Part shown: one piece after another, positions 51,620 to 55,042 of the stretch
Position numbering within the stretch: the stretch's first letter is position 1
Layout of the letters: each line of letters begins with the position of its first letter
Sequence record: PV659873.1
Strand: one strand, 5' to 3'
DNA length: 64,000 nucleotides
DNA from: Escherichia phage WPEC1
Notes under the pieces: model-generated
Seen by the model: the letters and a program-made list of their open reading frames with translations, nothing else
The model's database searches: none
Told to the model about the DNA's origin: nothing
Program-made: the position numbers and the translations under genes

Positions 51620-51898
51620 TTAAAATGGTTCGTTAGTCTCCATCATATATTCTGCTTCTAGTTCTTCCATGTGCTTTCTAAATTGGAAAGCAATTTCTGC
51701 TACAGTTACATTTAAATCTTTTTCAAAAACCTCTGTAGAGCCTTCATAAAAACGAATACCGTCAATTAAAAGCCCTCCGTGGTAATCCCAATCACTTTCA
51801 CGAGAAAGTGGGTTAGGTTCTTCATAATAGTAATCCACCTCCACAACTAAGGCTTTCCCATTACGAGTGGTGTATTCAAAATCAAAAGTGTTAATCAT
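51620..51898 (-). CDS. hypothetical protein
   Basis: 92-aa ORF. Confidence 0.4.
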   Translation of the reverse strand: MINTFDFEYTTRNGKALVVEVDYYYEEPNPLSRESDWDYHGGLLIDGIRFYEGSTEVFEKDLNVTVAEIAFQFRKHMEELEAEYMMETNEPF

Positions 51899-52842
51899 TA
51901 TAGCTCCTCAAATAAAAGTCTACGACGCTCATTCAACACATCAATGTGATAATGAGTCCTGACATACTTAGCTAATGCTAATCCTTTCTCCATGCAAACA
52001 TCGGGAGCACTTAATAAGTATTCCGTAATATCTTTCCACTCGGAAGGTGTTTCAGCAAAGAATAACAGATCTTTAAACTCTTGTGTATGATAATTCTCAC
52101 GAGGAGAACAGATTAAAGGTAAACCCTTAGCACCTGCCTCAAGAATTTTAAGATTGCTTTTTGCGTTATTAAACACGTTATCGATCAATGGCGCAAGACT
52201 GATTTGATGACCATCGTAAGATTCCATGTAGTTGGCATATGGTCTCACACCTTCATAAACACAAGTTGGTGCTACATTTTCTCTGATTACAGACCATTCA
52301 CGACTACTTAAAACTTCAGAATCCCTACGAAAACCACATATTGTAAGATCTTTACCAAAATCGGGCAAGATAGCCAAATCTTGTTTATGTGTTTCACTTC
52401 CAGCCCAGACTAATGGAGTTTTGGAGTAGCGATCACGGGTCAACACAAATTGACCTTCATCGTAAGGAAGTCCATTAGGGATTATGTGCACATTATCATT
52501 GTATTGTGAAAGTTCAACTTGCAAGGCAGGTGTCGTAGTTGTAACAAGATCGCTGTGCTCTAAAAACCATTTTAAATGTTCACGAATACCTGATTCAAAA
52601 ATACCTTCTAACATGTGTCCTTTTGGAATAACTAAAGAGTCATCCAAATCCATAACCATTTTAAAACCTAGGTTTTTAAGGGCTAAAAAGCCCTCTTTAC
52701 CTTTTGTTGGCACTCCGTTAAAAACGAAAACGTTGTGTTTAGGTTGTGAAGAGAACTGCCTTGAGTAAGGCAGCACTACCCTATGGAAATCGCAGACACT
52801 ATAATTGATTCCGTTACGATTGTCAAGAATTATTTGTCCCAT
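51898..52842 (-). CDS. glycosyltransferase, GT-B-like (paralog 2 of tandem pair)
   Basis: paralogous to 52850-53797; C-terminal NLKILEAGAKGLPLICS resembles GT1 E...EAMA.G.P motif. Confidence 0.5.
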   Translation of the reverse strand: MGQIILDNRNGINYSVCDFHRVVLPYSRQFSSQPKHNVFVFNGVPTKGKEGFLALKNLGFKMVMDLDDSLVIPKGHMLEGIFESGIREHLKWFLEHSDLVTTTTPALQVELSQYNDNVHIIPNGLPYDEGQFVLTRDRYSKTPLVWAGSETHKQDLAILPDFGKDLTICGFRRDSEVLSSREWSVIRENVAPTCVYEGVRPYANYMESYDGHQISLAPLIDNVFNNAKSNLKILEAGAKGLPLICSPRENYHTQEFKDLLFFAETPSEWKDITEYLLSAPDVCMEKGLALAKYVRTHYHIDVLNERRRLLFEEL

Positions 52843-52849
52843 ACTTCAC

Positions 52850-53797
52850 CTACAAACTTTCAATAACCTGGCGTCGCAACTCATTTGCATCTGCCAGATT
52901 GTAGTGTGTTCGAACATGTTCTGCTAAGAACAAGCCACGATCTTCCCGATAATTTGGATTGCGAAGAAGTTTAACAATTTCGTAATGCCATTCTGCTTTA
53001 TTCTCTGCGTAAGCAACAGCACGAGCATCTACAGGGTTAAAATAAGGTAACACTTTAGAACAAACAATCGGAATACCTTTTGCTCCAGCTTCCAAGATTT
53101 TGAGATTACTTTTACAATTATTAAAATCATTGTCCACTAGAGGAGCTATAGCAATAGCATGACTCTCGTAAACACTCATGTAATTATCTAAATCTTTTAC
53201 AGCAGCTTTATATTTGGCATTTGGTAAGTTTCTGCGGATCTTAATCCACTCTTGCCCCGTGATGCTCTGTGAAGCTTCGTATCCTGCAATAGTAAGAAGT
53301 TCATCATCAAAAGTGTTAGAGACTAGTCGTAAATCAGGTTCGTGACTAGCCCCGCCAGCCCATACGACAGGAGTACCGGATGAACGATCATTTGACAAAG
53401 TGAATTGTCCGCTATCAAAAGGAAGTGCATTTCGGATCACAACAACATTCCTATTTAAATGACGGATTTTATATGCCAAATATTCCGTAGTCACAATGAC
53501 CACATCAGCAAGCTTAACCATAGCTACAATAGCATGAGTGTTTGACTCGTATAGACTTGCTAAATAATGCTCTGGATTAAGTTGGTAAAAATCATCTAAA
53601 TCTACAACAATCTTAACACCTTGACGTTTCAAAGATAAAACGTATTCTGCACCTTTAGAGTGGATACGATTAAACACAACAACATCTTTCTTAGGTTGAA
53701 GATTATTGTTGTTAAATGGCATAACAATACGATGATAGTCACAACCGCTGTGAGGTTTTGCATCAATTTTTAGTTTAGACCATTTTTTATTTGACAT
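52850..53797 (-). CDS. glycosyltransferase, GT-B-like (paralog 1 of tandem pair)
   Basis: shared blocks with 51898-52842 (CDYHRIVMP, VVWAGG, NLKILEAGAKGIPIVCS, HVRTHY). Confidence 0.5.
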   Translation of the reverse strand: MSNKKWSKLKIDAKPHSGCDYHRIVMPFNNNNLQPKKDVVVFNRIHSKGAEYVLSLKRQGVKIVVDLDDFYQLNPEHYLASLYESNTHAIVAMVKLADVVIVTTEYLAYKIRHLNRNVVVIRNALPFDSGQFTLSNDRSSGTPVVWAGGASHEPDLRLVSNTFDDELLTIAGYEASQSITGQEWIKIRRNLPNAKYKAAVKDLDNYMSVYESHAIAIAPLVDNDFNNCKSNLKILEAGAKGIPIVCSKVLPYFNPVDARAVAYAENKAEWHYEIVKLLRNPNYREDRGLFLAEHVRTHYNLADANELRRQVIESL

Positions 53798-54470
53798 GTG
53801 CTAGTGCCTCCTCATAGGAAATTCGGATTTTCCCATTTTTAATATCCTCTAAAGATGCTTTATATTCTTCCCAGTTAATCCCAATAGCAGCTTCTTTCTC
53901 TTCTTTTGTCAGATTAGCAAAAGGCATAGGATTGTTTCCAAAAACATCGTCTGGGTGGATATAAGCCATGATACGAAGTGGACAAGGTGTTGCCTGAATA
54001 CCATGATTCAAACCAGCAGCTTTCAAACGGTGTCCCCATTCAGCATCTTCAAAACCATAGCCGTGAGTGTAAGGGCGGAAATAACCCATCTTCTCAACAA
54101 CGGCACGAGAATACATTGCAAATTGACACATTGCAAGTTCCCAGAGAATAACTTCTCCTTTGCTCCCGACAACTTTATCTTTGAAATATTCCGGCATACC
54201 AAAGAAATCCCATCCTCCAGAGATAGCTTGATCTACAAAATATGTTTCCCATCCTTCCATAACTGGGTAGCAATCGTCATCAAAAATAAACCAATAATCA
54301 TAACCTTCTTCATAAAACTGGTGCATAAGTTCATTCCTGGCGTAAGCTACACCTTTACGATCTGGATCGTTGAATACTCGAAAATCTGCACGTGGGTCTG
54401 TTACAAGGTAGTCTTTTAGTGGACGGACACCTACAGTGATAACACCCACTCCGATTTTAATATTTTCCAT
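53787..54470 (-). CDS. glycosyltransferase, GT-A fold (family 2-like)
   Basis: YARNELMHQFYEEGYDYWFIFDDDCYP (DxD region), GFEDAEWGHRL (ED motif). Confidence 0.5.
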   Translation of the reverse strand: MENIKIGVGVITVGVRPLKDYLVTDPRADFRVFNDPDRKGVAYARNELMHQFYEEGYDYWFIFDDDCYPVMEGWETYFVDQAISGGWDFFGMPEYFKDKVVGSKGEVILWELAMCQFAMYSRAVVEKMGYFRPYTHGYGFEDAEWGHRLKAAGLNHGIQATPCPLRIMAYIHPDDVFGNNPMPFANLTKEEKEAAIGINWEEYKASLEDIKNGKIRISYEEALAHVK

Positions 54471-54478
54471 TTTCTCTC

Positions 54479-55042
54479 CTAAATAGTTTTACTGTGATCG
54501 TGACAGTGTAATAAATGATGTATAGACCGTTGAGGATTTGTTTGACCTAATCTGTAAATGTGAAACAGATACATTCCCCGCATCAATCCTAACCTCTTTC
54601 CTTTTTCATGTAAAGTGCGAGAGAAAATTAAGTCGAATTGGATAGATTTTTCTTCGAAAGGAATTTCATTCCACAGTGATTTTCTAAAAAGCAAAAAGAA
54701 ACCTGCCAGAGGTGTTCCGAAAGGAACTTCTTCAACACTCACTTTATGATATTCTCTTGCAATCTTAGCATATTCTATATGGTTTAGAATATCTGGATCA
54801 TCGTTAATTTGGTTAGAGAAAAGCTGATAACCACTGCCTAACCTGTTACAAGTTGCACCTATTACATCAAAAGGTGGGTTTGACATAACAAGCTCTTCAA
54901 GCATAGATGGTTGATCAGGTAGGAGGAACATTGTATCGGTATCTCTTAAACACACCCAACTATCATCTGGAAGAACGGCAATAGCTTCATTGATAGCCTT
55001 GCCGATATTTCCTGTCAGATAGGGAGTAATATAATAAATCAT
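54479..55042 (-). CDS. putative GT-A-like nucleotide-sugar transferase
   Basis: N-terminal YYITPY...NEAIAVLPDDSWVCLRDTDTMF (DxD-like). Confidence 0.35.
   Translation of the reverse strand: MIYYITPYLTGNIGKAINEAIAVLPDDSWVCLRDTDTMFLLPDQPSMLEELVMSNPPFDVIGATCNRLGSGYQLFSNQINDDPDILNHIEYAKIAREYHKVSVEEVPFGTPLAGFFLLFRKSLWNEIPFEEKSIQFDLIFSRTLHEKGKRLGLMRGMYLFHIYRLGQTNPQRSIHHLLHCHDHSKTI

Follow-up and report, generated by a model that had tools for sequence, protein, structure and literature searches.

A four-glycosyltransferase cassette in Escherichia phage WPEC1, its mobile core in other phages and its possible role in virion glycosylation

Four glycosyltransferase genes at a lysis/replication junction

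We analyzed a 64,000-nucleotide (64-kb) stretch of sequence record PV659873.1, from Escherichia phage WPEC1 (here called the window), which is part of a Phapecoctavirus (phAPEC8-like) genome and carries a cluster of four glycosyltransferase (GT) genes, designated GT1 to GT4. In nucleotide comparisons, the GT region is 100% identical to those of Escherichia phages WPEC2, WPEC4, and WPEC6 and 97 to 98% identical to those of about 60 further Phapecoctavirus (phAPEC8-like, Stephanstirmvirinae) genomes; “glycosyltransferase (x4)” is already annotated at the same position in several RefSeq/GenBank records. The four open reading frames (ORFs) lie on the minus strand and are packed as one operon, with gaps of 7 to 8 nucleotides (nt) or overlaps of 1 to 11 nt. 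They are transcribed in the order GT4 (55042->54479), GT3 (54470->53787), GT2 (53797->52850), and GT1 (52842->51898). The cluster and the small ORF that follows it are listed below; where we write GT2-like or GT4-family of an enzyme type, we mean the enzyme family and not the gene.

54479..55042, minus strand: GT4, 187 amino acids (aa); divergent GT2-like GT-A enzyme, first gene of the cassette
53787..54470, minus strand: GT3, 227 aa; GT-A enzyme with a DDD motif, conserved core pair with GT2
52850..53797, minus strand: GT2, 315 aa; GT-B enzyme of GT4-family type, ortholog more widely conserved than GT1
51898..52842, minus strand: GT1, 314 aa; GT-B paralog of GT2
51620..51898, minus strand: 92-aa acidic ORF; start overlaps the GT1 stop by 1 nt; phrog_4240 (unknown function), E 6.4e-33

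All four GTs match PHROG glycosyltransferase families, with E values from 1e-79 to 1e-149. GT1 and GT2 are 41% identical, and both belong to phrog_7162 (E 1.9e-145 and 5.5e-149, respectively). GT1 also matches the Pfam family Glyco_trans_1_2 (PF13524) with 25.2 bits, against a cutoff of 25, and GT2 obtains subthreshold scores of 20.4 to 22.8 bits from Pfam families of the GT4-like clan (Glyco_trans_1_2 and Glyco_trans_1_4). The AlphaFold model of GT2 (predicted local distance difference test [pLDDT] score of 92.2) has a GT-B fold of GT4-family type. Its top Foldseek matches in the PDB are sucrose-phosphate synthase, BshA, MshA, PglA, SdgB, TarM, and Gtf3; for sucrose-phosphate synthase, BshA, MshA, and PglA, E values range from 5e-10 to 3e-9, with a template modeling (TM) score of 0.6. 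The GT-B pair thus shows the two Rossmann-like domains and the family likeness expected of the GT4-like clan. In the N-terminal, acceptor-side domain of these GT-Bs, R23, P27, D66, D68, D69, N123, and F132 are invariant across phages with unrelated capsids.

The other two enzymes are of the GT-A class. GT3 belongs to phrog_2456 (E 9.6e-79), D64-D65-D66 and E141-D142 are invariant in its family, and its AlphaFold model (pLDDT 89.1) has a GT-A fold. The PDB matches of this model in Foldseek are GT-A enzymes, namely, A197 of Sulfolobus turreted icosahedral virus (STIV), which is the best, WrtF, TarP, LH3, and COLGALT1. The GT3 family is uniformly acidic, with an isoelectric point (pI) of 4.7 to 5.3. 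GT4 is assigned to phrog_14179, annotated as “glycosyltransferase” (E 8.5e-113), with D34 and D36 invariant as a DxD motif. GT4 itself has no Pfam match, and its class is given by this motif together with its relatives, which match Glycos_transf_2 (P0086) and Glyco_tranf_2_5 (P0137) within the homologous domain. A profile search of 1.84 billion cluster representatives places about 983 of them in the GT4 family, where fusions of the domain to TOD1/MUCI70 GT-like and Methyltransf_24 domains are common. Frequently, this domain, of about 180 aa, is the C-terminal half of a protein of about 400 aa with a TOD1/MUCI70 GT-like N-terminal half (P0086 to P0231), and such fusions sometimes add Methyltransf_24 or a second GT2-like domain. 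The GT4 domain has no Pfam family of its own and could be a candidate new GT-A domain family. A profile comparison of GT3 with GT4 revealed no relationship, and sequence and profile searches of the PDB sequences with GT1, GT3, GT4, and alignments A1 to A3 returned only noise. The fold search of BFVD matched mostly unnamed or generic GTs, megavirus and pithovirus GTs included, and does not separate the functional readings weighed below. None of the four GTs has a hydrophobic run of transmembrane length.

A sequence-only reading of the window had proposed two GT-B paralogs and two GT-A enzymes, on the same strand as and upstream of genes for a primase-helicase, a methyltransferase, and a DNA polymerase. 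PHROG matches, models, and motifs agree with these classes, all four proteins are assigned as GTs, and the ORF list confirms the coordinates, the shared strand, and the following downstream order.

49829-51607, minus strand: Toprim/DnaB primase-helicase, downstream of the 92-aa ORF
Minus strand: 143-aa ORF, downstream of the primase-helicase
Minus strand: 264-aa protein with EPSAGEGAF and NPPF motifs; DNA methyltransferase by annotation in relatives
45169-48501, minus strand: DNA polymerase, family A, 1,110 aa, intein-containing; downstream of the 264-aa methyltransferase-like protein

The polymerase is named “intein-containing DNA polymerase precursor” in the phi92-like phage Bas60. The 92-aa ORF (pI 4.2) is kept between GT1 and the primase-helicase in the phAPEC8-like lineage, and a homolog follows a GT1-like gene in contig L006; among the prophage and lambdoid loci examined, none had it beside the cassette, and its membership in the cassette is uncertain. 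On the upstream side of the cluster lie an endolysin (cell-wall hydrolase) gene and then the TerD, vWA-TerF, and TelA genes. Because the endolysin gene is directly upstream of the small ORFs, the GT cluster stands at a lysis/replication junction and not purely within the replication module. A scan for promoters and terminators gave no usable operon boundaries or expression timing for the GT cluster. A G+C-rich perfect hairpin (GAGGGGGATTTCTCCCCCTC) at 56327-56346, in the gap between the TerD and endolysin genes, may serve for termination or RNA processing, dividing the Ter genes from an endolysin and GT transcript.

A mobile GT-A and GT-B pair in other phages

The conserved unit of the cassette is the pair formed by GT3 (GT-A) and GT2 (GT-B), and this pair is a mobile module. 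GT1 is 76% identical to gp163 of phage phi92, and the duplication that gave GT1 and GT2 is present in Stephanstirmvirinae and close relatives. The GT-B of a lambdoid phage, in turn, is 46% identical to GT2, and that of a Serratia prophage is 51% identical. In the latter, relatives of GT4, GT3, and the GT-B (41%, 37%, and 51% identical, respectively) keep the order of the cassette. To extend the comparison, IMG/VR was scanned with the GT-B profile, which recovered more than 571 relatives; ORFs were called in the 79 best loci, and their neighbors were clustered and confirmed by Pfam. The gene orders around the module are as follows, where TerS and TerL are the small and large terminase subunits.

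Serratia sp. M24T3 HK97-like prophage: lysis genes, GT4-like, GT3-like, GT-B, HNH, TerS, TerL, protease-capsid, portal
Lambdoid phages with O/P replication genes: antiterminator region, GT3-like, GT-B, lysozyme and predicted membrane protein, TerL, portal
Contig L007 (P22-type Nin genes): TerL, then farther on GT-B, GT3-like, portal
Contig L018: GT-B, GT3, TerL, Mu-type portal, S49 protease, major capsid protein E
Contig L025: GT3, GT-B, SPP1-type portal (three ORFs beyond the GT-B), capsid protein E
Contig L020: TerL, portal, GT-B, GT4-like, GT3-like, Methyltransf_24, PLOD-type GT, c45 protein (cluster representative Methyltransf_24)
Large freshwater lineage: GT-B, hexapeptide acyltransferase, GT-A or S-adenosylmethionine (SAM) methyltransferases, small ORF at the TerS position (identity as TerS unconfirmed by Pfam or PHROGs), TerL
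Related lineage: XkdF prohead protease, GT-B, scaffold-like protein, 323-aa protein at the capsid position

In L007, a 152-aa protein is encoded between the GT-B and the GT3-like gene (10927-11385); by eye, its N terminus resembles papain- or C39-type cysteine peptidases.

Further GTs or sugar-tailoring genes, namely, hexapeptide acyltransferases, SAM methyltransferases, and the PLOD-type GT, accompany the GT-B in 53 of 76 IMG/VR loci, and one methyltransferase near the cassette has weak similarity to rhamnosyl-O-methyltransferase/TylF. The variation of the tailoring genes among loci suggests that the product is an oligosaccharide undergoing diversification, unlike the mono- or disaccharides known from DNA. 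Packaging and head genes are also frequent neighbors. A TerS, TerL, protease, or capsid-position gene lies within 8 genes of the GT-B in 49 of the 76 loci, a count to be read against the partial kinship of these loci, whose GT-Bs form 28 clusters at 60% identity, and against the width of an 8-gene window in a 30- to 50-kb genome, which makes proximity to the terminase partly a matter of chance.

Donor sugars, candidate acceptors and other features of the window

The rhamnose genes rmlC and rmlD and the GT cluster were each matched by 70 phage records, whose breakdown by organism and host is identical. All Phapecoctavirus genomes carry rmlC and rmlD, while rmlA and rmlB vary in presence: Mt1B1_P17 lacks both, and they are not listed beside rmlCD in the WPEC records. 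Every Escherichia coli cell makes dTDP-4-keto-6-deoxyglucose for enterobacterial common antigen (ECA) with RffH and RffG. The host enzymes therefore supply the precursor, and RmlC and RmlD suffice for dTDP-L-rhamnose in any host; the variability of rmlA and rmlB fits reliance on RffH and RffG for the first two steps. Because RmlC and RmlD are enough for dTDP-L-rhamnose, this sugar is a likely donor that would serve one or more of the GTs. The absence of rmlA and rmlB has also been described for phage ESCO37 (PMC10269720), and Olsen et al. noted the rhamnose pathway earlier, in 2020, and suggested DNA glycosylation (PMC7552041).

Two breakpoints separate the window from reference Phapecoctavirus genomes. 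At 9830/9832, about 6.85 kb of Mt1B1_P17 is missing, a segment with genes for a His-tRNA-synthetase-like protein, a methyltransferase, HslV, PhoH, and a lysozyme, an rmlD-like gene, and rmlC; the WPEC records carry rmlCD elsewhere. At 19092-19245, the tape-measure gene directly adjoins the region encoding the DNA polymerase exonuclease subunit, and the terminase-to-sheath block is skipped. Both breakpoints could be a true rearrangement or an artifact of assembly or permutation.

We tentatively favor, without giving it an even chance, a reading drawn from gene context in which the operon is a cytoplasmic glycan-building cassette that decorates virion proteins and is fed with dTDP-rhamnose by the phage RmlC and RmlD. 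The recurrent late and morphogenesis context of the module supports a virion-protein acceptor, as do the sugar acetyl- and methyltransferases that accompany it and the precedent of the mycobacteriophage GT cassettes described below. In addition, outside its own family, GT3 has its nearest relatives in isolated phages among mycobacteriophage GTs (tblastn E of about 1e-8), one of which, Marker gp106, is encoded at the right genome end, where phage Che8 has its GT genes 108 to 110. Virion-protein glycosylation, which the sequence-only reading had listed as an alternative, is the best fit to the evidence.

Acceptor, sugars, order of action, and time of expression would, as we infer them, be the following. 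The cassette would consist of soluble cytoplasmic enzymes, with GT3 and GT2 as its core, extended by GT4 and by the duplicated GT-B GT1. One GT would prime the acceptor and the others would lengthen the sugar chain, with the GT-Bs extending a primer, to build a short, lineage-variable oligosaccharide on capsid, decoration, or tail proteins before or during assembly. The sugar supply would likely include dTDP-L-rhamnose, with the host RffH and RffG replacing the missing RmlA and RmlB. At the level of families, inverting rhamnosyl transfer would suit the GT-A enzymes better, and retaining hexosyl transfer the GT-Bs of GT4-family type.

Several observations weigh against virion-protein glycosylation, in addition to the kinship of the loci and the chance element in the terminase count. 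We found no report in the literature of glycosylated Stephanstirmvirinae virion proteins or of glycosylated coliphage virions. In the window, the GT cluster lies between the endolysin and the primase-helicase, away from the capsid genes, and ParB-DNA methyltransferases also occur in the module regions. The invariant acceptor-side residues of the GT-Bs are less easily reconciled with direct recognition of diverse proteins than with one conserved acceptor, for example, DNA, a lipid carrier, or a sugar primer. Similarity to the Che8 enzymes is at the GT-A level and confined to gp108 (E 6e-4), with none significant to gp109 or gp110. Moreover, the 323-aa protein of the lineage with XkdF is a putative capsid protein by position only; it falls in a PHROGs family of unknown function and matches nothing in the PDB or among annotated phages.

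DNA is the acceptor that the gene order first brings to mind. The sequence-only reading had proposed a DNA hypermodification pathway; as we spell it out, GTs encoded near replication genes would place rhamnose or hexoses on a modified DNA base and so evade host nucleases, and Olsen et al. proposed rhamnosylated hydroxymethylated nucleotides for these phages (PMC7552041). The GT cluster is indeed co-oriented with and upstream of the primase-helicase, DNA methyltransferase, and polymerase genes; ParB-DNA methyltransferases adjoin the cassette in some phages; and the invariant acceptor-side residues would suit a universal acceptor such as DNA. Yet the linkage to primase and polymerase is lineage specific, and elsewhere the module adjoins lysis, terminase, portal, and capsid genes. 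The position next to the polymerase is therefore misleading here, as other phages carry this module amid late genes. It also occurs in lambda-O/P-type temperate phages, in which we saw no nucleotide-modification gene.

Family membership speaks in the same direction. GT3 has weak matches to the TAGT family (PF20691; E 1.2e-3) and to phrog_842, “beta-glucosyl-HMC-alpha-glucosyltransferase” (E 6.4e-6), but both span just 36 to 40 residues or so at the DxD motif; for TAGT, residues 32-67 alone align, and the score of 19.3 bits is below the Pfam cutoff of 27.5. None of the GTs matches the Pfam families of the T4 alpha- and beta-glucosyltransferases (AGT and BGT) at E <= 1, and AGT and BGT are absent from the top 50 PDB fold matches of the GT2 model. 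The tblastn matches listed for GT3 (E <= 0.01) are mostly from Mycobacterium phages, and because their Escherichia count (106) equals that of the GT1 search, T-even phages probably contributed none of them. The acidity of the GT3 family (pI of about 5) is weak evidence against direct DNA binding.

The genome does encode nucleotide-metabolism enzymes that could be thought of as partners, namely, a ThyX-like enzyme, an NT5C-type deoxyribonucleotidase, a nucleotide kinase, and a nucleotide pyrophosphohydrolase. The sequence-only reading had pointed to the first of these as atypical and had seen no ThyA-type hydroxymethylase; none is in fact annotated in the complete genome of the relative vB_Ec-G1. 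The annotations of this genome include ribonucleotide reductases, a thymidylate synthase of ThyX type, a deoxyribonucleotidase, a pyrophosphohydrolase, a nucleotide kinase, and several DNA methyltransferases, so that the suggested genome-wide search for hydroxymethylase and kinase genes yields a kinase and no hydroxymethylase; nor are TET/JBP or DpdA among its annotations. Likewise, neither TET/JBP nor a hydroxymethylcytosine pathway beside a TAGT-like GT is annotated in the window, in the complete relatives, or in the prophage or lambdoid carriers. The ThyX-like gene is present as described:

14575-15573: ThyX-like protein, 332 aa; xHRxxSxxxxSxR signature kept (THRLFSRNAASSR), with THR instead of RHR

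The gene has no evident partnership with the GTs. Full-length homologs are present in more than 1,000 phage records, including N4, ICP1, and PB1-like, rV5-like, and phiCbK-like phages, and none of N4, ICP1, or the PB1-like and rV5-like phages appeared in the GT searches. Because the gene is so common in phages absent from those searches, we rejected the ThyX-like protein, NT5C, the kinase, and MazG as thymidine-exclusion or hydroxymethylation partners of the GTs. As to the protein itself, ThyX models match only its first 175 residues or so, with 31 bits against an equivalog cutoff of 87.9, and the long variants appear to be a distinct phage ThyX subfamily with an uncharacterized C-terminal half.

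Published phenotypes bear on the same question. Vequintavirinae and phi92-like phages are reported to be exceptionally sensitive to restriction-modification (RM) systems despite their putative dTDP glycosylation machinery (Maffei et al., PMC8594841), and Bas60 PaulScherrer, a phi92-like BASEL phage of this RM-sensitive group, has all four GT genes, arranged as in the window. Stephanstirmvirinae are named in a later preprint as one of five Druantia III-A-sensitive groups, which are jointly RM targets, long tailed, recombination prone, or combinations of these. In a collection of phages of avian pathogenic E. coli (APEC), HincII digested the DNA of all but three Tevenvirinae, and the phages cut included five Phapecoctavirus and one Justusliebigvirus (PMC10269720). 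Such cutting speaks against global hypermodification, although it is compatible with sparse or site-specific modification. With no base-activating gene annotated, no match to a DNA-GT family, RM sensitivity, and HincII cutting, the hypermodification pathway is unsupported, and we regard it as very unlikely. Phapecoctavirus and phi92-like phages should not be presumed hypermodified, which is consistent with their reported RM sensitivity.

A second alternative places the acceptor in the host envelope. The GTs, together with RmlC and RmlD, would alter or divert lipid-linked precursors of ECA, lipopolysaccharide (LPS), or capsule, which could block superinfection, prevent adsorption of progeny to debris, or, in temperate phages, cause lysogenic conversion. 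RmlC and RmlD would draw dTDP-4-keto-6-deoxyglucose, a precursor shared with the Fuc4NAc of ECA, toward rhamnose. PglA, PimB', and TarM, among the fold matches of the GT-B, act on lipid-linked or polymer acceptors, and the conserved acceptor site would fit an undecaprenyl pyrophosphate-linked sugar. The cassette itself, however, has no flippase, Gtr-type protein, or hydrophobic run of transmembrane length. Phage seroconversion systems, by comparison, are membrane embedded and encoded beside the integrase. The setting is divided in the same way: in lambdoid phages, the GT pair lies in a region with accessory genes (HicAB), from the antiterminator to the lysis genes, but most IMG/VR carriers have the cassette in the packaging and head block, once between protease and scaffold, which would be odd for a role at the host surface. 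Vequintavirinae and their relatives use ECA and the LPS core as receptors (PMC8594841), which is in favor of such remodeling. Overall, we consider it rather unlikely.

The acceptor may also be a host protein, a nonstructural phage protein, a small molecule, or a nucleotide signal, with a role in host takeover or antidefense. Small-molecule enzymes are well represented among the fold relatives (BshA, MshA, sucrose-phosphate synthase, SenB, a tetrahydrobiopterin GT, and the nucleoside-binding AvpGT), SdgB and Gtf3 act on host-type proteins, and the invariant acceptor-side residues fit a single conserved small acceptor. Four GTs with variable acetyl- and methyltransferases nevertheless point to an oligosaccharide and not to a single glycoside. 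No antidefense evidence, from PADLOC or otherwise, emerged, although no search was aimed at it. In the lineage of WPEC1, the cassette adjoins stress-type genes, a tellurite-resistance-type set directly upstream of the endolysin and the GT cluster:

56364-56966: TerD
57477-58271: vWA-TerF-like protein
59865-60926: TelA

This set is syntenic across the phage lineage, with TerC added in the related contigs L006 and L010, yet it is absent from the other module carriers examined. We therefore rejected a functional tie of the GTs to the TerD, TelA, and vWA genes as lineage-specific synteny, and an acceptor of this third kind seems unlikely to us.

Next to the Ter genes, positions 60975-63673 do not align with the relative vB_Ec-G1 in megablast. 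The region holds two ORFs of interest:

60975-61193: 72-aa ORF
61447-62541: 364-aa protein with repeated CapR-homology domains

The 72-aa ORF copies a 25-aa stretch of the 364-aa protein exactly (WIVECPICAEDDYCKEGLCDNKFEM), and because of this repeat, we suggest that a partial duplication or an insertion may have occurred here.

Returning to virion-protein glycosylation, a broader form of it, which we advance with a little more reserve, is that the module is a widespread, mobile virion-glycosylation system in phages of Gram-negative bacteria. It would span over 570 IMG/VR contigs, prophages of enterobacteria, and every therapeutic coliphage of the phAPEC8-like and phi92-like types. Coliphages of these types (Phapecoctavirus and phi92-like) are common, have a broad host range, and are repeatedly picked for therapy and biocontrol cocktails. 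If the reading is true, Stephanstirmvirinae particles would bear a rhamnose-containing surface glycan, the first such system outside actinobacteriophages, and virion glycosylation would extend from mycobacteriophages to phages of Gram-negative bacteria; antibody recognition and neutralizing-antibody responses, serum stability, adhesion to mucus or host, pharmacokinetics, and the host range of therapy phages could be affected. The four GT annotations were already public and the idea of DNA glycosylation for the rhamnose pathway already published; new here are the tested folds, that of GT4 included, the failed tests for membership in DNA-GT families, and the mobile module with its late-gene context.

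Comparison with known glycosylation systems

The cassette resembles T-even DNA glucosylation in that phage GT-B and GT-A enzymes are encoded near DNA-metabolism genes, and the second GT of phage T6 is a GT-A enzyme of the TAGT family (PMC13390438). Unlike the T-even system, however, it has no match to the T4 GT families and no hydroxymethylase, dCTPase, or dedicated kinase set tied to its GTs, and HincII cuts Phapecoctavirus DNA, with related phages highly RM sensitive.

With the Gtr-type O-antigen seroconversion modules, it shares the carriage of glycosylation genes by temperate enterobacterial phages. GtrA, GtrB, and GtrC are membrane proteins that work with a bactoprenol-linked sugar, and their genes lie beside the integrase; the four GTs described here lack hydrophobic runs of transmembrane length and have no Gtr family match in Pfam.

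More distant likenesses are found among viruses of other domains. In the PDB, GT3 is matched best by A197 of STIV, an archaeal virus, a resemblance at the level of the fold, with 17% identity. A virus-encoded nucleotide-sugar pathway combined with GTs recalls giant viruses, with their Mimivirus-type rhamnose pathways, and megavirus and pithovirus GTs are among the BFVD matches, although hosts and virion architectures differ.

The closest proposed functional parallel is with the mycobacteriophage cassettes. Those of Che8 (gp108-110), Corndog, and Myrna are reported to glycosylate capsid and tail-tube subunits in the cytoplasm, and Che8 gp110 is reported to be essential for capsid glycosylation (Freeman et al. 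2023, as summarized in PMC12363180). In contrast to these, the cassette described here serves phages of Gram-negative hosts, is accompanied by phage-encoded dTDP-rhamnose enzymes, is known from its genes, and is built on a GT-B of GT4-family type that is absent from the Che8 locus. No significant match was obtained to Che8 gp110, which with Corndog gp38 ranks among the proven virion GTs; this lowers a claim of membership in that group but not one of functional likeness. Both kinds of cassette consist of several soluble GTs encoded together by the phage, in some cases with methyltransferase domains; among isolated phages, it is mycobacteriophage GTs that stand nearest to GT3 outside its own family; and the relatives of the module carry sugar methyl- and acetyltransferases beside head or packaging genes.

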